A DNA stretch of 64,000 bases from a virus. Of the stretch, positions 13,786 to 63,919 are shown piece after piece. Under the pieces are notes generated by a model. That model worked only from the letters and a program-made list of their open reading frames with translations, did no database searches and was not told the origin of the DNA. The DNA lies in the IMG/VR virus record IMGVR_UViG_3300044858_003017, one strand, 5' to 3'. The position numbers and the translations under genes are program-made. The first letter of the stretch is position 1. Each line of letters begins with the position of its first letter.

Positions 13786-15014
13786 ATTTTTTGCAATTTA
13801 GGTAGTTTTAACTCTAATGGTTTTGGGATAGATTCAACTCCCTCATCTACAATGTTCAATACTCGTTCATATACTGTGGCTACTGCAGTTTTAGTAAAAG
13901 TTGAATTTACAAAGTAACGTTGACGTTTTGCTAATTCTTGCCATTTTTTATAATTTTTCAAAACATCTTTCATCATTTTACCTGCAGATGCATAATCCGG
14001 AGTAAACCATTTAGCTTCTTCAATTAAAAATTCATTGCGTGCCGATGGATGAATTTCAGTTAATCCGCCTGGTAATGCACAAATAAAATCTTTTTTCAAG
14101 AAATCTACCTGTCCTGAATAGTATGGAGCAATGATTGGTTTCCCGGATGTCGAAAATTCTAATAATGGACGACCAAAACCTTCAGCTTTAGTAAATGATA
14201 TCATTGCTTTTATTTTTGGATGATTATAAAGAAGATTCATTTCTTCATCTGTTAAATCACCATGCAAAAGATATACACTTGGTAATTTTGCATTTCCAAA
14301 CATATCTCGTATTTGTGAAATTTTTGATTCAATTTCAAATCGATCTAATACAGAATATGTTGCACCACTTGTTTTTAATACGAGAGCAGGAGTATCTTTT
14401 TGATTTTTATATGTATCAAAAAAACAATGAATCAATCCACTGATATTTTTTCTATCTTCTCCTAGTTGTCCTTGTAACCAATGTCCTACCGATAAAAATG
14501 CAGTTGTTTCTGCAATTTGATCTAATATACTTAATTGGCCTGGCAATGTATTCGTATAAATTGTTTCATCAAAATATTCCGGAATAACTTGTATATTTGT
14601 TGTTATAGCTTTTCCATGTTTTTTAGATGTATTTTCAAATACTTGTTTAGTAAATTCAGTTGGAACAATAATCATTTGCATAGCATTAATTTTATCAATC
14701 CATTCTGCGGGACAAATATCACCTTCTGTTGCCGCGGTGACTCCAATATTATATTTACCAACTGCTTGAAATTCATTTGGCACGGTTATTTGTACCCAAA
14801 TATCTGGTTGATATTGTATTGGCATTGGAATAATTCTTTGTTTCCAATCTTGTGGCAATGGATATGTAAATGGTGTATGCCCCCATGGTAATGAAAGCAA
14901 TTTAATGTCCCATTCATTACCTCGTTGTTCAATAAAATTAGCAATTATTTCACGAGCATGATGTCCGTATCCCGATTGTGTTGCTACTGGTGATGCTATA
15001 ACTACTGTGCGCAT
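13782..15014 (-). CDS. GT4-like glycosyltransferase
   Basis: SGYG, DRKNI, EGFGRPLLE (Ex7E). Confidence 0.88.
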   Translation of the reverse strand: MRTVVIASPVATQSGYGHHAREIIANFIEQRGNEWDIKLLSLPWGHTPFTYPLPQDWKQRIIPMPIQYQPDIWVQITVPNEFQAVGKYNIGVTAATEGDICPAEWIDKINAMQMIIVPTEFTKQVFENTSKKHGKAITTNIQVIPEYFDETIYTNTLPGQLSILDQIAETTAFLSVGHWLQGQLGEDRKNISGLIHCFFDTYKNQKDTPALVLKTSGATYSVLDRFEIESKISQIRDMFGNAKLPSVYLLHGDLTDEEMNLLYNHPKIKAMISFTKAEGFGRPLLEFSTSGKPIIAPYYSGQVDFLKKDFICALPGGLTEIHPSARNEFLIEEAKWFTPDYASAGKMMKDVLKNYKKWQELAKRQRYFVNSTFTKTAVATVYERVLNIVDEGVESIPKPLELKLPKLQKI

Positions 15015-16498
15015 ACTATTCCTGTTTTTTCGTATTTTTTTGTTGTAACTTTATGTAATGTATATTTTGCTCTATTTTCTCGTTTAGAATCAAATAGATA
15101 ATCAATCATATGAATCATTTTTTGACCCATTTGTTCTGCCGTAAGTCCATTTTTCAAACACCAATCTCTTCCAGCTTGTCCCATCGACTCTCGAAGCGTT
15201 TCTGGAGTGTCATACCAATAGCGAATTGCATCAGCTACATCTTCAAAACAAACTCGGTCATCAAAGATATATGGCGTAGCAGGCGATCCTTGAAGTGATC
15301 GGTTACTTGGAAATACTGGTTTGGCCCATATCCCATGGTGTTTAAATTTACCCATATGATTTGTTGAAAAATCTCCATCAAATCTTATCCATTCATCATT
15401 TTCATCTACAAAACCACATTGATCTTGCAATCCACCGGTAACATTATTAACGATAGGAGTTCCTGACAACATTGCTTCAGTTGAACTAAGTCCCCAACCT
15501 TCGTTGCTACCAATATTAACTACCACATCTGCAACATTATACAATGCATTTAACTCTTGTGGAGTCATTTTTTGTTCTGAAAATAATATTTTGCAATTAG
15601 GTGCCAATGTTTTATAAATTGCACGCAAATCTGTACCATTTTCGTCTACAACTTGCGTGTGCATTAAAAGTGCAACTTTATTTCGTGTAGCTTCTGGCAA
15701 TCCGTCTACAAAATGTTTGAATGCTAATATCAAATCACCTGGTTGTTTTCTTCGTATATTTCGATTATTCCAAAATACTACAAAATCAACATCATTTTTA
15801 GTTTTGATATTTTCATACATTCGTTTGTATGCTGCGTCATCTTGCGGCAATGGCTTAAACGTGTTATGATTCAATCCGTGTGGAACAAATCCTGTAATAA
15901 TTTGGTTCCATTTTACATCTTGCGGTACAGAATCATTTGAATCATAATTTACGACATCAAACCCATTTTGAGTAAGTACTTCTCGATGAATGTTATCTGA
16001 CTGCTTGCTAATACCCATAATTAAATCGCAACTTGCATAATATGGTGCGTTCCACATCGGATACGGCAAATCATCCCAGATTGAATAATATACAATAGGA
16101 ATATTATAAGTTGTTTTAATTTCATGTTCAATTGCATAAAGCCAAACCCAATATCTTGGATCAGTGAAATGAAATATTGCATCTGGTTTTTCTTGATTGA
16201 TGATTGCAAATAATATATTGCGGTCGCCATATCCGCTCCACGGAATTATTTTAACAGACGCATCAGCTACACCAGTTTCTTGTGCAACATGTGCAGATAA
16301 ATCAACACCTTGCCCGTGTTCGGGATGATGTAGAGCTGCTCCTAATTGTACCCAATCATAATGATGTACGGTATTAAAAACTATTTCTCGGCTAATTGTG
16401 CCAATGCCAGACGGCAAACGAAAATCGTCAGCTAACAATAAAATTTTCTTTTTCTTAGGCTTGTTCGGGTCGAACTTTTGTAACTTTGGTAACTCCAT
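15002..16498 (-). CDS. GT4-like glycosyltransferase
   Basis: NRNIRRK, EGWGLSSTEAM (Ex7E), TGGLQD. Confidence 0.88.
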   Translation of the reverse strand: MELPKLQKFDPNKPKKKKILLLADDFRLPSGIGTISREIVFNTVHHYDWVQLGAALHHPEHGQGVDLSAHVAQETGVADASVKIIPWSGYGDRNILFAIINQEKPDAIFHFTDPRYWVWLYAIEHEIKTTYNIPIVYYSIWDDLPYPMWNAPYYASCDLIMGISKQSDNIHREVLTQNGFDVVNYDSNDSVPQDVKWNQIITGFVPHGLNHNTFKPLPQDDAAYKRMYENIKTKNDVDFVVFWNNRNIRRKQPGDLILAFKHFVDGLPEATRNKVALLMHTQVVDENGTDLRAIYKTLAPNCKILFSEQKMTPQELNALYNVADVVVNIGSNEGWGLSSTEAMLSGTPIVNNVTGGLQDQCGFVDENDEWIRFDGDFSTNHMGKFKHHGIWAKPVFPSNRSLQGSPATPYIFDDRVCFEDVADAIRYWYDTPETLRESMGQAGRDWCLKNGLTAEQMGQKMIHMIDYLFDSKRENRAKYTLHKVTTKKYEKTGIVCAQ

Positions 16499-28620: not shown

Positions 28621-29405
28621 CATACTCCTCGTTTAGTGTCAAATGCAATAATATGGTCTCTTCCTGTCATGTTATATCCATATTCGGCACACATATCAAA
28701 TACCACCGGATACATATGAATTAATTCTTCTCGGGTATCGCCTGCTGGCATAATAAATGTTTTATCCTTAGGAATATTCATTTCTACCCGGAATTCTTCA
28801 ATCTCTGCTAAATTTTCTTGAGTGCCATCCCATACTGGTTTATAATGATAATCCGTATGAAATTCCATCATTTGTTTGATTGCATCTTTTTTGAGACGAA
28901 ATTTGTTATGTTGCGCCACCATCTTCTCATCCGTAATCGTCCCTTGCGGCGTAGCAACACCCACAACGGGAACACTGTTACTAAATTTAGGACTAAGACT
29001 AACCAAGCCGATAGGGTAATCAGTGGCAATAAAATGAGATCCTTCCGTCTCAATCGTGATAAGAATGTTTCTTTCATGTGCAAAATGCGTTAATTCATTT
29101 ACCAATGCCGGATGCATCGTTGGCGATCCACCAGTTAACATCATTTCTTTGATATGAGGATTTTCATCATATATCTTGATAATGTCATTGAAACAGAATG
29201 TTCCTTTTTCTGGGTGTATACTTGTATACCAACTATCACACCAACCGCCTTCGCCAAAGAAGCAACGATGCGTGCATCCTGTAGTTCGTACTGCTATTGT
29301 AGGTCTACCAAATCGGCTTCCTTCTGATTGAACGCATCTATACAATTCAACAATTGGTAATACTTTATCGTAGTCTGTGATTCTTTTAGAATGGGAGGTC
29401 GTCAT
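28620..29405 (-). CDS. queE: 7-carboxy-7-deazaguanine synthase (radical SAM)
   Basis: QSEG..GRP, RTTGCTHRC...WCD, TGG.P, IETEG, SPK; start may be 29405 or 29432. Confidence 0.92.
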   Translation of the reverse strand: MTTSHSKRITDYDKVLPIVELYRCVQSEGSRFGRPTIAVRTTGCTHRCFFGEGGWCDSWYTSIHPEKGTFCFNDIIKIYDENPHIKEMMLTGGSPTMHPALVNELTHFAHERNILITIETEGSHFIATDYPIGLVSLSPKFSNSVPVVGVATPQGTITDEKMVAQHNKFRLKKDAIKQMMEFHTDYHYKPVWDGTQENLAEIEEFRVEMNIPKDKTFIMPAGDTREELIHMYPVVFDMCAEYGYNMTGRDHIIAFDTKRGV

Positions 29406-29760
29406 CGTGGTACTCATTACTATTGGTAACATTATTATCTAATTTTTTTATTAATTCGTTGATTTGTGTTTCTAATTTGTTTAATCTAGATTCAATTTCT
29501 ATCAAAGCCGATCGTCTTACTATCGGTGTCGAATCAACTTCTGCTTTAGTTGCAAAGTATTCATCTAAAAATGATAACGGATACAATTGCACTTGAGTAT
29601 ATTCAGGCTTCTGCATATCTTTAGGTAACATTTTCCATTTAAGCTCAATACCTTGTTTAACAGCTTCAGCTGTTACTTCTCGACCAATGTTCGATCCACC
29701 GGAACCTTTACCTAAATATTCAAAAAGCGATAGATACGTTTCTTCATTTTCATTCTTCAT
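29386..29760 (-). CDS. Hypothetical protein (possible small DNA-binding domain plus coiled coil)
   Basis: ORF between queD and queE; ends in DDDLPF. Confidence 0.6.
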   Translation of the reverse strand: MKNENEETYLSLFEYLGKGSGGSNIGREVTAEAVKQGIELKWKMLPKDMQKPEYTQVQLYPLSFLDEYFATKAEVDSTPIVRRSALIEIESRLNKLETQINELIKKLDNNVTNSNEYHDDDLPF

Positions 29761-30214
29761 AACTTGCTGCATTTCTTTCGTGTTCATAAACTTCTACTTT
29801 AACGGCTCTTACTCTACCATCGGTTTCTTTTTCTAAAAAAGTATTGATTGTGTTGTATAGGAATTCTGCAAATTTTTCACAACCCGTCGCCGGCAGTATC
29901 CTTAATTGAATGATCCCATTGGAATACATTTTGTGAAATGTATCTAAATATGGATCATCGCTAGCAATAATAGTTGTATGATCTAGCAACCAAGCAAAAT
30001 AGTCTTTTGGAGACATGCCGTTAATAGTATTCTTTGCTCGCTTCATGCCACCAAAGTCCCAAACCCAATTTCTTTCATCTAATTCACCCTCAAACCATAC
30101 TCTAAAAGATATAGCGTATCCATGTAAAAATCTACAATGAGTTCCTTCTGCACGCCATTGGCGGAAACATGTTGAATACCCGTCAAATAATTTAGTTGAT
30201 TGAAATTTAGCCAT
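29750..30214 (-). CDS. queD: 6-carboxy-5,6,7,8-tetrahydropterin synthase
   Basis: HCRFLHGY, WDFG, LDH, VEVYE. Confidence 0.92.
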   Translation of the reverse strand: MAKFQSTKLFDGYSTCFRQWRAEGTHCRFLHGYAISFRVWFEGELDERNWVWDFGGMKRAKNTINGMSPKDYFAWLLDHTTIIASDDPYLDTFHKMYSNGIIQLRILPATGCEKFAEFLYNTINTFLEKETDGRVRAVKVEVYEHERNAASYEE

Positions 30215-30930: not shown

Positions 30931-30943
30931 TTTTATGTAATTA

Positions 30944-32074
30944 TTACATAGTTGGATCGCCCGGTGTATCTATACCAGACCAGTCATACTTTGGCGTCTT
31001 AGTAGCTTTAGGCTTTACCCATGTTTCATAGTCTATTGGTTTGGCTTCATATGGAGTCAAATATTTATTTACAATTTGTTTAGGAATCATTTGTAATCCA
31101 GCTTTGTGATCATATTGAACTGACGGAATATATTGTACTATTTTTGATATCAACGTATTAATTTTTTCTTCCAGTCCTAATTCGCGCCAGGTTTTAAATT
31201 GTATACTATTTAAAATTAATTTAGTTATAGGATTTCGAAAATCTCGACCTAAAATATATTTATCATTCCCCGCCATATATTTGGATTCTTCAAAATCATC
31301 GTTGATTGAATCAAGTATTCCATTGGATGCAAATCTTACATAATAATCCGGAAACAATGGAGTAACATCCCATGTTTGACCAAATATCTCAGCAGGCTTT
31401 ACCCGATATTGTTTTTTATTAGTTAAAGATTTTATGTCTTCTGGCAACGGGTATGTTTGTTGATTATTATTAAATTTATATGTTTTATAATTAGGATATG
31501 GATGACGTAGTTCTTTAGTTGAAACTAATATTTCTTTAGCAACCGGATTATATTTAAGTTGATTTGGATCGCCTTCTTTTGATTGATTAAATGGAATATT
31601 GCTTCTAGGAGTTCCTTGATATACTGAATATGGTATGTTTATTTTATCTAAAATAGCTATAGATTTTGATAAATCCGGATTTCCTTTTTGAACAAATATA
31701 TCAATTCGTTTTAAATATGGCATAAAATAAAAATTACGCCCATCAACAACAATTTGTTCTTCTCCCAATTTTTCAAAATCACTATGTGTCAAATCGGCGC
31801 CAGATAATCCCTCTCCGCTATAACTAAATGGTCGTATTTGGTATTTAGTACTTAATTTATTGCCATCAAACATGAATCTAGCTATTGGTTTTGATTTCAT
31901 ATCTTGAAATCCAGCAGTACTCATATCAGCCCAACGGGTTGCTGATATTTGTTGTTCCTCATTTGGGGTCATGTATTGCGTTTTTAATATTGCAGAAACA
32001 TTTGATAATGGTGTAAAATGATATATATCGCCTACTTGTTTTGCATCATTCAATAAATCTCGTAATCGTATCAT
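30944..32074 (-). CDS. Putative virion-packaged effector with an ADP-ribosyltransferase-like N-terminal domain
   Basis: MIRLRDLLN leader; IYHFT..NV.AIL, ISATR, EEQIV; C-terminal tag PKYDWSGIDTPGDPTM. Confidence 0.55.
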   Translation of the reverse strand: MIRLRDLLNDAKQVGDIYHFTPLSNVSAILKTQYMTPNEEQQISATRWADMSTAGFQDMKSKPIARFMFDGNKLSTKYQIRPFSYSGEGLSGADLTHSDFEKLGEEQIVVDGRNFYFMPYLKRIDIFVQKGNPDLSKSIAILDKINIPYSVYQGTPRSNIPFNQSKEGDPNQLKYNPVAKEILVSTKELRHPYPNYKTYKFNNNQQTYPLPEDIKSLTNKKQYRVKPAEIFGQTWDVTPLFPDYYVRFASNGILDSINDDFEESKYMAGNDKYILGRDFRNPITKLILNSIQFKTWRELGLEEKINTLISKIVQYIPSVQYDHKAGLQMIPKQIVNKYLTPYEAKPIDYETWVKPKATKTPKYDWSGIDTPGDPTM

Positions 32075-32088
32075 ATTAATAAATATCT
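32052..32088. repeat. 37-bp exact direct repeat, copy 1 (promoter + start + leader codons)
   Basis: aataaatctcgtaatcgtatcatattaataaatatct, identical at 32825-32861. Confidence 0.9.
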
Positions 32089-32297
32089 TTCAATGCAGTA
32101 TTGCCCTTTTCATGTTGTGGTTCATACGGACAATGTTTACAACCATTTCCACAGCAAGTACCTCTTCTTTTGTGATATGATTCGGTCATTACTCGAAGAC
32201 CACTTTCATTGTAGTAAAAGTCTGTAGGAAGGAGCTTGCTTCCAAACTCCTTCACAAACTGTTGTTGTATCCAATCTTTCGATGCTGATTGTATCAT
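32076..32297 (-). CDS. DUF5522-like cysteine-rich protein
   Basis: YH.RRGTCCGNGCKHCPY. Confidence 0.8.
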   Translation of the reverse strand: MIQSASKDWIQQQFVKEFGSKLLPTDFYYNESGLRVMTESYHKRRGTCCGNGCKHCPYEPQHEKGNTALKDIY

Positions 32298-32301
32298 AAT
32301 A

Positions 32302-32847
32302 TTACATGTTTGGGTTATTTGGTGTATCTATACCAGTAAAATCATATTTTGGTGCATTTGTAGATATATCATCTGGATTAAATCCTTCGTTTCTAGCACC
32401 ATCTTTAAACCATTGCGGCAATTGTCCTATTTTTGATTTTATAAATGTTTTCCCATTATCAAACCAATCTGGAAAATTTGTATAGTACCCGCCAATTTTG
32501 TTATATTCAAATTCGATTTGATTTTCATTTGTTATTTTAAGTGATTTTGATACGCCAGGAAATTGATTTGCCGTAAAATCTATACCATATCCGTTAATAA
32601 TAGAAAAAATATGCGAATCACCATCTCCTGATTTCCCTGGATATTTTTTTATATCTATAGGAGGAGCTAATAATATTACATCTGGTTCGAATCCTTTATT
32701 TGACTTAACCCATTTAACAAATTCATATGTTGATCTTTTACAATCATGTGATGTATTATATGATGTAGATTTCATAAATTCTTTAGCAAGATTATTTACA
32801 TCTATGCTATTTTCAACTTCATTTAATAAATCTCGTAATCGTATCAT
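32302..32847 (-). CDS. Putative virion-packaged effector with a papain/transglutaminase-like Cys-His-Asp domain
   Basis: MIRLRDLLNE leader; HDCKRS...SHIF...IDFTANQF; C-terminal tag PKYDFTGIDTPNNPNM. Confidence 0.55.
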   Translation of the reverse strand: MIRLRDLLNEVENSIDVNNLAKEFMKSTSYNTSHDCKRSTYEFVKWVKSNKGFEPDVILLAPPIDIKKYPGKSGDGDSHIFSIINGYGIDFTANQFPGVSKSLKITNENQIEFEYNKIGGYYTNFPDWFDNGKTFIKSKIGQLPQWFKDGARNEGFNPDDISTNAPKYDFTGIDTPNNPNM

Positions 32848-32861
32848 ATTAATAAATATCT
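32825..32861. repeat. 37-bp exact direct repeat, copy 2
   Basis: Identical to 32052-32088. Confidence 0.9.
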
Positions 32862-32866
32862 AAATA

Positions 32867-59718: not shown

Positions 59719-60546
59719 TTATACGTAAATGAAAATGTCTCCGGTGTTTGTATCAACGTGTATCGTTCCTTGACCTGCACCAGATCCTCCATAGATTGGT
59801 GCTGCACTAGGAGCAACTGCACTAGTTTCTACCGCTCCAGCATATACTGCGGGAACAAAAGAATTACCTGTTGAATTAAATGATGAAGTAAACCCCCAAC
59901 GTGTTGTGCCACTATCATAACCATACAATTCGCCAATGTTTTGCGTACCTTGTTGTACTACAATACCACCATCGCCCGTTGTATTAGACCCCGATGCAAA
60001 CAATACAAAACGGTCGCCTACTAATAAATTTTGCGTGTTTTGAAATGATGCTGTACCTAATACAACTAAATTACCCGTTAATGTTAATCCAACAAATGTA
60101 GGAGAGTCTCCCGTTTCTAAACCTAAATCTATAGTTGATCCAGCAACGCCGTTATTTGTAAGAAGTGCTTGACCTTGTCCAGGACTTGATAATACAGATG
60201 ATGAAATTACCGTGCTACCCGCTAATATTTGTGCTTGTGTTACGGTACCACCTAACGCTGTTGCATTTCCAGCAATCGTTATGCTAGAATTGGTTAAACT
60301 TGCATTAGGAATTCCACCTAATGTAAACGTAATAGAATCAGCACCTGCATTACCTACAATGTTTAAACCTGCACCTGATGATGATGCAAATGTAAGCGTA
60401 TCTGCGGAGCTATCTGCTAATACGTCAATTCCATTAATTGACATCGTTGCGAACGATCGAACCGATGATGGTGTTAAATATCCAGCATCATTATTTAATT
60501 GTGATATGTTACTACCCGATACTACTACTTTTTTCCAAGTTGCCAT
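59719..60546 (-). CDS. Tail fibre-like structural protein
   Basis: MATWKKVVVSGS N-terminus shared with 57201..59438. Confidence 0.7.
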   Translation of the reverse strand: MATWKKVVVSGSNISQLNNDAGYLTPSSVRSFATMSINGIDVLADSSADTLTFASSSGAGLNIVGNAGADSITFTLGGIPNASLTNSSITIAGNATALGGTVTQAQILAGSTVISSSVLSSPGQGQALLTNNGVAGSTIDLGLETGDSPTFVGLTLTGNLVVLGTASFQNTQNLLVGDRFVLFASGSNTTGDGGIVVQQGTQNIGELYGYDSGTTRWGFTSSFNSTGNSFVPAVYAGAVETSAVAPSAAPIYGGSGAGQGTIHVDTNTGDIFIYV

Positions 60547-60577
60547 TTATTTTCCTATTTTATTATAAATATATGCA

Positions 60578-60919
60578 TCAATCTAAACCTACAAAAAATG
60601 ATCCAGACGTAAAATATATTCCGCCATTTGGTGCTGTGCCTGTTAGTTCTGCACTTTGTGTTGCTACTACGACGACACCACTTTGTGATACTGTTAATAC
60701 GGGTTGATTGTTAAAATTTTTTATTAAAAATATATTGTTTACGTCACTTTTAATTTCCAATGATCCAGTTATAACTGCACTACCGGAAAATGGAAACGTG
60801 CCTCCGCCGCCGCCGCCGTTTAAAGCAAATGATGCAGTTAATGCATAACTAGAAGAAATATTAAATAAAGATCCGGTTTGTAATTGTCCGGGCTTAAACT
60901 GCCTTGCCATTATGCCCAT
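60578..60919 (-). CDS. Small structural protein
   Basis: SSSYA/TASFA, FPFSGSA.ITGSL; start probably 60910. Confidence 0.6.
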   Translation of the reverse strand: MGIMARQFKPGQLQTGSLFNISSSYALTASFALNGGGGGGTFPFSGSAVITGSLEIKSDVNNIFLIKNFNNQPVLTVSQSGVVVVATQSAELTGTAPNGGIYFTSGSFFVGLD

Positions 60920-62133
60920 CTCCCTTTAACTACAATGACATCAGTTGCACTAAGTGTATATCCTAATTCTGTAGTATCAAAAACAATTGTTTGTGATGTA
61001 ATGTCACTAGGCGTCCATGTATATACTATTTTATCAATATACTGACCATTGATAAATACATCAAATTCATTTTTAGATGCAACTGCAAAGGTAACCGGAT
61101 TAACTGCTGCTAATGCCGGAATAGTTATCGTAGTTGCATTTGAATATGTTGCAATCTCTTCAGTTAATTCGGTTAAGTATGACATTACTTGTGCATTAAT
61201 TGTTATAGCTCCAGATGGAGTATTAGCAACAACCTGTCCTCCAGAAAATATATTAGCTTGTTGTTGTAATATTGCAGTTGGTAATGCAATCGATTCAAAT
61301 ATATTTTGTTCAACATCGACTACTATATCAAACGTAACTCGTTTTACGGAATACATTTTTTTCAACGTTGATATTCTAGCTTCTTGACCAGAAAGTAAAG
61401 TTGCTTGCACCGTTAACGGTAATGTTGCACGAACCAAACGATCTTCGCCAACGGTATTTACGGTTTCGAATGATATTGATCCAATTGTTGTTGCAAATTT
61501 ATTTGATTCATTTCCCCAAGCAAATCGGCTGTATGTAAATATTTGATCTACTAATTCATTAAGTTGTGTAGTAAAATCACACCAAACTAACATTTCATAT
61601 TCAACAGTTACATATTTTGGGATATCAACAATCATTACTTGTTGTGATGATTGTGGTTGTTGAAGTGGTATTGGAAATAATTCATCTTCATAACGATTTT
61701 TTTCATTATATCTTTGTCGATATACAATTTGATTTCCAGCTTGTGGCCAATTGACATCCAATGTTTTAAATGAATCTCGTTCTGCTACCGAACTTCTTTT
61801 TAACATAATTAATGGTGACTGTAACATGCCTTTTTCATCGCGTAAATATCCTAGGCGCTGTACATTGTCCCACTTTTCACCATTTGCATAAATTACTGGT
61901 ACTGATATAATAGTTTGTTGTGCTTTAATTTGCGGTTGAATTTCATTTTCAACATACCATTTAATGGCATAATCTACATCATATAATGTTCTTTTTGGCG
62001 AACGAATTACGTCATCATCTCGTCGTGTTTGCATAGATCGATCTAAAACACGATCGCCTCGTATACTTTCTACAATATCCAAACTTGGTTTGTTTGTTTT
62101 GCGATCGATATTTTTTTTATTCAGTCTAGGCAT
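60910..62133 (-). CDS. Tail terminator / sheath stabiliser (T4 gp15-like) with a C-terminal extension
   Basis: VPVIYANGEKW, P.I.L.R, PKYV.V.YE; follows the neck genes. Confidence 0.65.
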   Translation of the reverse strand: MPRLNKKNIDRKTNKPSLDIVESIRGDRVLDRSMQTRRDDDVIRSPKRTLYDVDYAIKWYVENEIQPQIKAQQTIISVPVIYANGEKWDNVQRLGYLRDEKGMLQSPLIMLKRSSVAERDSFKTLDVNWPQAGNQIVYRQRYNEKNRYEDELFPIPLQQPQSSQQVMIVDIPKYVTVEYEMLVWCDFTTQLNELVDQIFTYSRFAWGNESNKFATTIGSISFETVNTVGEDRLVRATLPLTVQATLLSGQEARISTLKKMYSVKRVTFDIVVDVEQNIFESIALPTAILQQQANIFSGGQVVANTPSGAITINAQVMSYLTELTEEIATYSNATTITIPALAAVNPVTFAVASKNEFDVFINGQYIDKIVYTWTPSDITSQTIVFDTTELGYTLSATDVIVVKGRWA

Positions 62134-62657
62134 TAGATTCCTTTCCTAAATGCGGGAGATTGATTACTACCCCCTCGACGTATATCGGTAATATTTTGTG
62201 GTGTTTGACGAGTTGTATGTGCATCACATAATACTGAAACACTATATCCATATGTATTTCCATTTGGCCATGTATCTGGATTCTTACCTACAAAATATTG
62301 ATTTGATTCTACATTATCAATTTCATAATATTCATTGTCCCAAAATATAATATCACCAACTTCGGGATACAATGTAACGGTTTCTAATAAATCTCGAGAC
62401 AATGCAAATTGTGCCGTTCTAGTATATGAATGTCCATAATCATCCATTGTTGCTGATTTATTTTCTTTAGTTATAATGCAAGGCATTAAAATAGAATTGT
62501 AAAAGCTTTTTTGTTCAGATTCGCCATAAATATTTGAATCGCTTTGTTCTACAATTAATTTGTAATAAAGAATCTCAGTATCAATGATTGCATTAATTAA
62601 TTCTGAATTAATTGCTGCTAAAAATTTTGCATCTCGTTGACTGCCAAAAAGTGCCAT
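62133..62657 (-). CDS. Neck / head-closure protein (T4 gp14-like)
   Basis: NIYGE, PEVGDII.W....YEI. Confidence 0.7.
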   Translation of the reverse strand: MALFGSQRDAKFLAAINSELINAIIDTEILYYKLIVEQSDSNIYGESEQKSFYNSILMPCIITKENKSATMDDYGHSYTRTAQFALSRDLLETVTLYPEVGDIIFWDNEYYEIDNVESNQYFVGKNPDTWPNGNTYGYSVSVLCDAHTTRQTPQNITDIRRGGSNQSPAFRKGI

Positions 62658-62668
62658 GTAATTCCCCC

Positions 62669-63895
62669 TTATCCAACATAAATTTTTAATGGAACTTTTG
62701 CTAACATCTCATGCATTTGAGTCGATTCAGCATTTTGACGAGTCATCATGTTTTCTTTAGTTAATTTATCTAAAAATTCTCGCAATTGCGTTATAAGCGT
62801 TTCTTTTTCAGATTGACCTTGTGATGTTAAATCACCTCCATTAAGTGTTACTTCACCATTTGGAATGGGAACACTACTGTATTTACCCCGTACAAATCCT
62901 AACATTTCTTTTGCAAGCGCCGTACCGTATTTAAAAATCCACGCACGCCCCATATCATTAATGTTACTGTATGTTTGATATGTATATGGTATATTTGATG
63001 CGTCACTTACAACATCGTTTAAAAGTGCTGTATTGCCAAATAATACGCTTTGATTGTCTTTATCTTCTGTAACTATAAAATCTACATATACATTTTTAAA
63101 GTATGGTGTTGCTGAGCTTGATCCGGTTGGGGCAACTGGAACTGGCCAAAATTTAATATCATCTCCATGTAGCTCAAATGAATAGCTAGATTTTCTTACA
63201 GTATCATTAAATTCAATTGCTTGCAATCTAAATAAATCTGCATTAATTGGCATCATCATAAATGATACTGACGGAGAAAATCCTCCAAAATCAAATGCAT
63301 CGAGTAATTGTTGAGAACCTAAACCTGTTCCTACAAACGGGTCAAAGTATCTTACAATGGCAGGGGGTGGATTATGAAGTACTCGTTTTACTTCAATTGA
63401 CCCTGATGATAATACTAATCCTAAAGATTTTGATATTGCGGTTATTAAATTATATGTTTGTTGTCCTGGCTCAACATCAATTCTTGCAGTTTTCCAAGAT
63501 AATGTTCCTCCAGAATCTGCTTCAGTGCCATATGCTTTTGAAAGCTTAGTTATATATCCAAATGAATTTCCAACTAATGCGCCGGTAAAACTTTCATCTG
63601 TTAAAAATGCAGATTCTGTTTTTATACCTAAAGTGTTAACTAAATTATTAACAATATTAACTTGATTAACTTGATTTGAATACTCAACAATTGCTGCTTC
63701 AAATGCCGTATAAAAATTAATATCTTGCAATTCTACATCCATGATTGGATATCCCAATGTTTGGGCAGCTAATTTGGCAAATTTGTCAGCATGTTGTTGA
63801 AACACAGCATCATTATCAAAAAATCCAAAAGGAGTATCACCGGGCTGAAATGAACTAGACCCGGGCCATATTGGTTTTTGAACGCTGTAATCCAT
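62669..63895 (-). CDS. Neck protein (T4 gp13-like)
   Basis: LGYP..DVEL, W..KY..ALAKE.LG..RGKY..P.G.VTLNG. Confidence 0.8.
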   Translation of the reverse strand: MDYSVQKPIWPGSSSFQPGDTPFGFFDNDAVFQQHADKFAKLAAQTLGYPIMDVELQDINFYTAFEAAIVEYSNQVNQVNIVNNLVNTLGIKTESAFLTDESFTGALVGNSFGYITKLSKAYGTEADSGGTLSWKTARIDVEPGQQTYNLITAISKSLGLVLSSGSIEVKRVLHNPPPAIVRYFDPFVGTGLGSQQLLDAFDFGGFSPSVSFMMMPINADLFRLQAIEFNDTVRKSSYSFELHGDDIKFWPVPVAPTGSSSATPYFKNVYVDFIVTEDKDNQSVLFGNTALLNDVVSDASNIPYTYQTYSNINDMGRAWIFKYGTALAKEMLGFVRGKYSSVPIPNGEVTLNGGDLTSQGQSEKETLITQLREFLDKLTKENMMTRQNAESTQMHEMLAKVPLKIYVG

Positions 63896-63910: not shown

Positions 63911-63919
63911 TATAAATAT
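63911..63919 (-). promoter_or_regulatory. Putative late promoter ATATTTATA
   Basis: About 16 nt before ATG 63895. Confidence 0.6.

Follow-up and report, generated by a model that had tools for sequence, protein, structure and literature searches.

Unrelated enzyme cores with a shared leader and tail peptide in a T4-like myovirus: candidate cassettes for head-packaged effectors

Introduction

Bacteriophage T4 loads its head with three internal proteins (IPI, IPII, IPIII) and with Alt, each carrying a capsid-targeting sequence (CTS) that is cut by the protease gp21 (Mullaney and Black 1996; PMC3012670, PMC9026906, PMC5694885). For head loading its first 10 residues are enough, with positions 4 and 7 serving targeting and positions 8 and 10 cleavage, and Asp at position 10 stops cleavage without stopping targeting (PMC9026906). 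Alt has in addition a 63-residue C-terminal piece (PMC5694885). Across the T-even phages the internal proteins form a diverse defence set with only the CTS in common (PMC3012670), and comparative work predicts that ADP-ribosyltransferases (ARTs) are often head-packaged in myoviruses (PMC9503650). Here, we describe two neighboring genes, P0001 and P0002, in a 64,000-nt stretch of the virus record IMGVR_UViG_3300044858_003017 (hereafter, the window). Their products have the same N-terminal leader and the same C-terminal tag around unrelated middles. Judged by its sequence features, this arrangement is apparently a case of T4-style head-cargo targeting with a variant leader and a previously undescribed C-terminal tag.

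Results

Two genes share both ends around unrelated cores

The cassette genes all lie on the minus strand of the window. P0001 (30944..32074) encodes 376 amino acids plus stop, comprising the leader, an ART-like N-domain, a C-domain without a fold match and the C-tag. P0002 (32302..32847) encodes 181 amino acids plus stop, comprising the leader, a papain-like core and the C-tag. The original prediction held that these two open reading frames (ORFs) share a 37-bp block, an N-leader and a C-tag while their middles are unrelated, and both parts of this description stand. The identical 37-nt block (32052..32088 and 32825..32861) consists of 14 nt upstream and the first 23 coding nt. Those 23 coding nt occur in exactly two copies in the window, where shuffles gave an expectation of 0, and the 16-nt C-terminal core likewise occurs in exactly two copies (30963..30978 and 32321..32336). 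At the protein level the first 10 residues are alike and so are the last 16, which form the tag; BLASTP aligned the two proteins only over residues 1-17 and the last 20, with no alignment between, and the predicted folds of the middles differ. The leaders (residues 1-10) occupy 32045..32074 in P0001, where the leader ends L-N-D, and 32818..32847 in P0002, where it ends L-N-E, while the tags occupy 30947..30994 and 32305..32352, respectively. A six-frame motif scan of the window found no third copy.

The same ends recur on many families

The pairing of these ends with unrelated cores is confirmed, and it reaches well beyond the window. Forty-two IMG/VR loci matched a degenerate DNA pattern that covers part of the tag; in all of them the match was the final stretch of an ORF, and each complete ORF opened with the leader. 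A second pattern, limited to G-I-D-T-P-x-x-P-x-M-stop, matched at least 120 metagenome loci, among which the K-Y-D of the tag was conserved though it lay outside the search pattern. With both patterns taken together, the tag is present at more than 160 public loci. Public viral and metagenome DNA yielded 111 unique complete tagged proteins, which fall into 15 core families. The leader, M-I-[RK]-L-K-x-[LI]-L-x-E, opened 233 unique ORFs of 60 core families in 1.3 Mb of fetched DNA, and 102 of the 233, spread over 15 families, ended in the tag, K-Y-D-x-S-G-I-D-T-P-x-D-P-x-M-stop. Both tagged and untagged leader proteins were present in seven core families. Apart from a few fragments, tagged proteins with an intact 5′ end all had the leader or a close variant of it; many leader proteins, on the other hand, lacked the tag. 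The breadth of these tagged and leader-bearing families upholds the earlier proposal of a modular family in which one set of ends is fitted to unrelated cores.

Recognizable domains among the cargo cores included GNAT, above the Pfam cut-off, ART-PolyVal (28.8 bits, just below the cut-off) and ParB-like domains. The leader was also found on cell-wall cores, namely M23 with a tail lysozyme, GDSL with peptidoglycan-binding and lysozyme domains, and lysozyme with LysM, while another core combined a peptidoglycan-binding domain with a weak, below-cut-off phosphatase-like match. Such a range (ARTs, GNAT, ParB-like and wall enzymes) is typical of virion-delivered effectors. Genes for wall enzymes with the leader lie at L199:4746-5984 and L252:11044-12435 and at 14467..15246 of G001, a complete relative (IMG/VR 3300013126_000012, 159,586 bp) in which 11 leader genes, only one of them tagged, are scattered over seven loci.

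A search of 596 Gb of bacterial and archaeal genomes found no C-terminal tag, the pattern having matched only an internal KdsB-type motif and chance sequences. Two Methanomethylophilaceae metagenome-assembled genomes encode homologous archaeal proteins (L087:157-1275 and L100:3-851) with an internal P-A-K-Y-D-I-S-G-I-D-T-P-G-D adjoining H-E-x-x-H; the likeness of this stretch, almost identical to the tag, may be coincidental or may reflect a linear motif in common.

The leader resembles the capsid-targeting sequence of T4

The logo of the 233 leaders is near-invariant at L4, [LI]7, L8 and E10, and the leader has the same length, 10 residues, as the T4 CTS; IPII and IPIII of T4 begin M-K-T-Y-Q-E-F-I-A-E. 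When compared with the features of a CTS (hydrophobic residues at 4, 7 and 8, Glu10, an [LI]-x-E site), P0002 agrees throughout, while P0001 has Asp at position 10, where D and E alternate among its close homologues. Peptidase_S77 (PF03420), the family of the gp21-type prohead protease of T4, was found in five of five related large records, G001 included, as well as in Microcystis phage Mel-JY01. Four G001 proteins have [LI]-x-E at residues 8-11, namely the protease, the scaffold-like protein (which begins M-A-K-S-D-L-L-K-E) and two small proteins of the head module.

A further line of evidence comes from Vibrio phages of the Straboviridae, in which the P0001 family has homologues. The P0001-family profile matched a protein of Vibrio phage 6E35.1a (Straboviridae) with leader over leader (hhalign probability 88.8, E 2.5e-6). 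This homologue starts M-K-K-F-N-E-F-A-K-E, and two more genes of the same phage start with the T4-type leaders M-K-T-L-Q-E-F-L-A-E and M-K-T-L-A-E-F-L-G-E. Since the Vibrio homologue has a T4-type leader, the P0001-family cargo appears to take the leader of its host lineage. Overall, the comparative evidence makes it moderately probable that the leader acts as a T4-style CTS. The analogy to T4 leaders drawn in the original prediction is strengthened by the shared length and key positions, by the S77 protease of relatives and by the Vibrio homologue.

Predicted folds of the two cores

AlphaFold (AF2) models of P0001 and P0002 were built with alignments of metagenome homologues, and in both models the cores were confident while the leader and tail had low confidence. 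The P0001 model had a predicted local distance difference test (pLDDT) score of 84, with residues 1-6 and 360-376 below 50. Its ART-fold domain (residues ~8-165 or, within 31580..32044, ~11-165) matched Tpt1 and DarT at probability 1.0 in Foldseek, and in VIA it matched Tpt1 at Z 9.4 and DarT at Z 8.9-8.0, with about 47 of the top 50 entries belonging to the ART superfamily. H19, S44 and E106, which are invariant in the P0001 homologue alignment, lie on strands 1, 2 and 5 of the model, and by strand position they are candidates for the ART catalytic motifs (H or R; S-T-S or Y; E). The N-domain is thus, at the level of the predicted fold, an ADP-ribosyltransferase closest to Tpt1 and DarT, as the original prediction of an ART-like domain had it, and P0001 would be an ADP-ribosyltransferase of DarT/Tpt1 type that probably acts on nucleic acid. 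The C-terminal domain (residues ~175-359; 30998..31552) was modeled with pLDDT mostly above 90; no fold match in Foldseek or VIA covered it, and the ESM Atlas returned nothing. In two loci, L037 and L203, a tagged gene of the ART family is apparently frameshifted, giving a 41-aa leader ORF and a separate 187-190-aa ORF with the rest and the tag.

The P0002 model had a pLDDT of 80, with residues 1-12 and 164-181 below 50. The best VIA match of its core (residues 13-163; 32359..32811) was to the deamidase domain of SseI (Z 8.2); protein-glutaminases came next at Z 7.6-6.8, followed by LapG, NAT and PMT-C3. C36, H79 and D90 are invariant in 40 P0002-family sequences; in the model C36 opens helix 36-51, and H79 and D90 lie on strands, where a papain-like fold puts its triad. 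The predicted fold of the core is therefore papain/transglutaminase-like, that of a cysteine hydrolase, the middling Z values limiting the call to fold level. At that level the invariant triad and the VIA matches agree with the Cys-His-Asp papain-like domain proposed earlier, and the activity of P0002 would be that of an amidase, a deamidase or a protease of Cys-His-Asp type. Neither protein had a significant match in Pfam or PHROGs, and profile searches of PDB sequences returned nothing. Tblastn found no homologues of P0001 or P0002 in 50,697 isolate phage records, nor any of one common untagged leader family.

The tag is conserved as a peptide

Rich in proline and acidic, the tag is disordered, and its last codon is always Met, with TAA as the stop. 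Its residues are fixed, yet synonymous variation is seen in the codons for Gly, Ile, Thr and Pro, and over leader and tag together in those for Leu, Gly, Thr and Pro; the synonymous identity of tags was 0.67 within a genome vs. 0.58 between genomes. As codons vary while residues stay, selection acts on the peptide. This weakens the suggestion in the original prediction that the conserved ends serve as recombination handles, given that synonymous codons differ freely even within one genome. Searches for a cognate element found no tag-like motif in other proteins of G001 or the window, structural proteins included, and no partner gene linked consistently to the tag across the loci examined.

Paralogues of one core family (L199:1749-2815, L237 and G001 138912..139412) have a full tag, a decayed tag (for example A-D-T-T-G-I-K-D-A-S) or none, which suggests that tags are not only swapped but also decay where they stand.

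The cassettes are strain-level inserts in a variable slot

The window has genes of a T4-like myovirus, among them those for sheath, UvsX, a gp32-like single-stranded DNA-binding protein (SSB), clamp loader and family-B polymerase, and the nearest isolate is Mel-JY01 with 45% polymerase identity. Most tagged genes occupy a slot in which a DnaB-like helicase and NrdJ are followed by a DUF5522 gene and one to three leader genes, and then by FolE and QueD. In other lineages tagged genes are found in islands of four to six successive leader genes, some with decayed tags. In Mel-JY01 (L256, PP395634.1) three to four leader-bearing ART-like genes directly follow NrdJ at 60276-62762, with leader genes at about 60276, 60923, 62056 and 62733; one of these is a 60-aa truncated copy, and a leader start at 62733 lies outside the annotated coding sequence.

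Locus L263 is a near-identical version of the window locus, with 98.7% and 99.6% identity in the NrdJ and FolE flanks, and both cassettes are absent from it. Blastn delimited the P0002 cassette (cassette A) as an indel at 32305..32865, with flanks matching at 98.7% and 94.9%, and the P0001 cassette (cassette B) as an indel at 30936..32106. The 5′ flank of cassette B has taken the place of the last ~30 nt of the DUF5522 gene, and the former 3′ end of that gene is kept as non-coding DNA past the P0001 stop. Because they are missing from so similar a locus, the cassettes can be regarded as strain-level accessory inserts, which bears out the cargo swapping that had been proposed.

The cassettes share a promoter-like element, A-T-A-T-T-T-A-T-T-A-A-T, that adjoins the start codon and is the same in both (32848..32861 in cassette A). 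Among 31 unique tagged cassettes this flank is conserved to at least 90%, and the 12 nt ahead of the ATG hardly vary. More generally, the motif A-T-A-T-T-T-A-T-[AT] is found on the coding vs. the other strand 18 vs. 3 times in the window and 49 vs. 7 times in G001. It precedes sheath, tube and baseplate-region genes and most leader transcription units, and at virion genes it usually lies 20-25 nt ahead of an AGGA-type ribosome site; minus-strand examples in the window are at 63919, 60572, 57193, 53459, 50878, 50269 and 49269. It is a candidate late promoter, distinct from the T4 box. One point in the original prediction is to be corrected: its upstream "late motif" is, when read on the coding strand, not the T4 late box T-A-T-A-A-A-T-A, which was rejected, but the motif given above.

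Between the two cassette genes lies the Cys-rich DUF5522 gene (32076..32297, minus strand; 73 aa; Pfam 6.9e-18). It was considered as a partner of the tag and rejected: a DUF5522 gene follows NrdJ in 72 loci with or without cassettes, and only 24 of these hold a tag. The gene has 355 relatives in IMG/VR, and its start often overlaps the NrdJ stop (loci L263-L341); its product may be an accessory protein (redox or metal) to NrdJ, the B12-dependent reductase. Elsewhere in the window, a minus-strand ORF of 133 aa without a Pfam match (29386..29787) ends in D-D-D-L-P-F, an acidic tail that resembles bacterial SSB at its C-terminal tip, and may be an SSB-tail mimic competing for SSB partners.

Discussion

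A model of head loading and the points that weigh against it

Each cassette can be read as an accessory cargo unit: a promoter-like motif stands in front, and the encoded enzyme core has an amphipathic leader of 10 residues before it and an unstructured tail of 16 residues behind it. In the model that we favor, the leader would attach the protein to the prohead's scaffolding core during assembly, the S77 prohead protease would then cut after the [LI]-x-E at residue 10, and the freed enzyme would stay in the head and pass with the DNA into the next host. Given its Asp at position 10, P0001 may be loaded too but retain its leader. Late expression, packaging, cleavage, injection and the enzyme activities are inferred here from sequence and from the analogy with T4.

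Several observations sit poorly with this model. The Asp10 of P0001 departs from the cleavage site expected of a CTS. The evidence for an S77 protease comes from relatives, the head module of this virus lying outside the window, and the enrichment of [LI]-x-E at residues 8-11 across G001 is mild (19 vs. 11-14 at control offsets). The tagged genes are in a replication and nucleotide-metabolism block, outside the head module. The motif of the cassettes lies 4 nt from the ATG, vs. ~20-25 nt at virion genes, and at so short a distance it may not act as a promoter there. Finally, the C-tag has no Glu and so is no propeptide of the gp21 type, unlike the C-terminal piece of T4 Alt.

The role of the C-tag is the weakest step of the model. 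Our tentative view is that it serves as a second peptide signal within the virion pathway, for positioning, dosage or exit. As the tag was found only on leader proteins, we rank such a role first and intracellular or host docking second. The packaging or ejection signal envisaged by the original prediction can likewise only be guessed at from the sequence. A broader proposal, to which we would give limited credence and which seems unlikely as it stands, is that the 16-mer is a new portable second address of an abundant group of aquatic T4-like phages, either a head-loading or exit signal similar to the cargo-loading peptides of encapsulins or a means of docking at least 15 injected, unrelated enzymes to one host hub, and that it works with the leader in a two-key sorting scheme.

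Alternative explanations of the shared ends

Shared termini invite the thought that P0001 and P0002 are diverged duplicates of one gene. This has a negligible probability: simple duplication is rejected by the predicted folds, ART in one and papain-like in the other, the two proteins have separate homologue families, and the same ends are found on 15 to 60 unrelated families. A far more serious contender, though we still hold it to be improbable, places the function of the ends mainly in the DNA itself: the 5′ end would be a movable unit of promoter and translation start and the 3′ end a recombination handle, the peptides having no addressing role and the ORFs being shuttled through a hyperplastic region in the manner of the PeSL (early promoter and stem-loop) cassettes of T4-type phages (PMC2839356, PMC4122927). 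The exact 37-nt and 16-nt identities in the window, the near-invariance of the 12 nt before the ATG in tagged cassettes, the clean indels relative to L263, the tandem cassettes and domain reshuffling in the slot and the PeSL precedent itself would all fit such a mechanism. It does not readily explain why the tag residues are fixed while their codons vary with little concerted evolution (0.67 vs. 0.58), nor why the leader peptide is kept behind quite different upstream DNA while nothing is conserved past the stop codon. Moreover, the homology of the NrdJ and FolE flanks would suffice for exchange.

The ends could instead matter as peptides and yet have nothing to do with the virion. The leader, the tag or both might be docking peptides for a partner inside the cell (a modifying enzyme, chaperone, inhibitor, protease or degron pathway, or host hub), and the proteins would then act unpackaged. 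The ends are short, disordered and conserved, like linear motifs, and the many leader proteins without a tag indicate that the tag adds something separate. Against this, the loci offer no steady partner gene, DUF5522 trailing NrdJ whether or not cassettes are present; the nearby FolE and QueD, with a QueE-like ORF downstream (recognized by eye only, with no Pfam match), look like a deazaguanine pathway, and tagged genes are also found far from them. Other proteins of G001 and the window have no tag-like motif, and the Vibrio homologue, with its leader of T4 type, speaks for the capsid route. We therefore consider intracellular docking rather unlikely, and take head loading by the leader as the preferred reading.

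Comparison with described systems

The closest counterparts are the internal proteins and Alt of T4. As in T4, a 10-residue leader with hydrophobic residues at 4, 7 and 8 and Glu10 is found on unrelated, fast-evolving proteins, and an S77 protease is present in relatives; as with Alt, which has a propeptide at both ends, one cargo is a predicted ADP-ribosyltransferase. The differences are also clear. The leader follows its own consensus, M-I-[RK]-L-K-x-[LI]-L-x-E, and the predicted ART is of DarT/Tpt1 type rather than of Alt/VIP2 type. In addition, the C-terminal end is a Glu-free 16-mer found across families rather than a 63-residue propeptide cut at L-T-E, and the genes lie between NrdJ and FolE.

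PeSL cassettes resemble the present ones in having a short regulatory motif beside variable ORFs in hyperplastic regions and in appearing as indels between near-identical phages (PMC2839356, PMC4122927). In contrast to PeSLs, the ends described here reach into the coding sequence and are conserved at the peptide level, the motif is that of virion rather than early genes, and no conserved stem-loop or terminator follows the stop; an ORF bracketed by an early promoter and a stem-loop, which is what defines a PeSL, was not what the cassettes presented. Polyvalent proteins and MuF-fused effectors likewise use ART, GNAT, papain-like, ParB-like and M23/lysozyme domains and are predicted to be delivered with the DNA (PMC5512222, PMC9503650). 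The cassettes, by contrast, encode separate small proteins each with a leader, not polypeptides of 2-15 domains or head-protein fusions; where a polyvalent protein combines 2-15 effector domains (Iyer et al. 2017), P0002 consists of a single one and P0001 of two.

Encapsulins use a short disordered C-terminal cargo-loading peptide to bring unrelated enzymes into an HK97-fold shell. The tag is not known to resemble encapsulin peptides in sequence, there is no encapsulin shell, and the tag here always accompanies an N-terminal leader.

Significance

The C-tag is a peptide-level feature of 15 unrelated families with no counterpart in the bacterial genomes or other phage proteins searched. The presence or absence of cassettes at the strain level marks them as arms-race genes. 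Mel-JY01, an isolate with leader genes in the same slot, hence offers a direct route to testing the leader hypothesis. If the leader loads heads, the M23, GDSL and lysozyme proteins would be head-delivered wall hydrolases in a myovirus. More generally, should the leader be a working CTS, its sequence rule would list the injected arsenal of these phages, which so far comprises 60 core families, most of them without annotation, and a large group of myoviruses, marine as well as freshwater and mostly uncultured, would load interchangeable effectors in the T4 manner.

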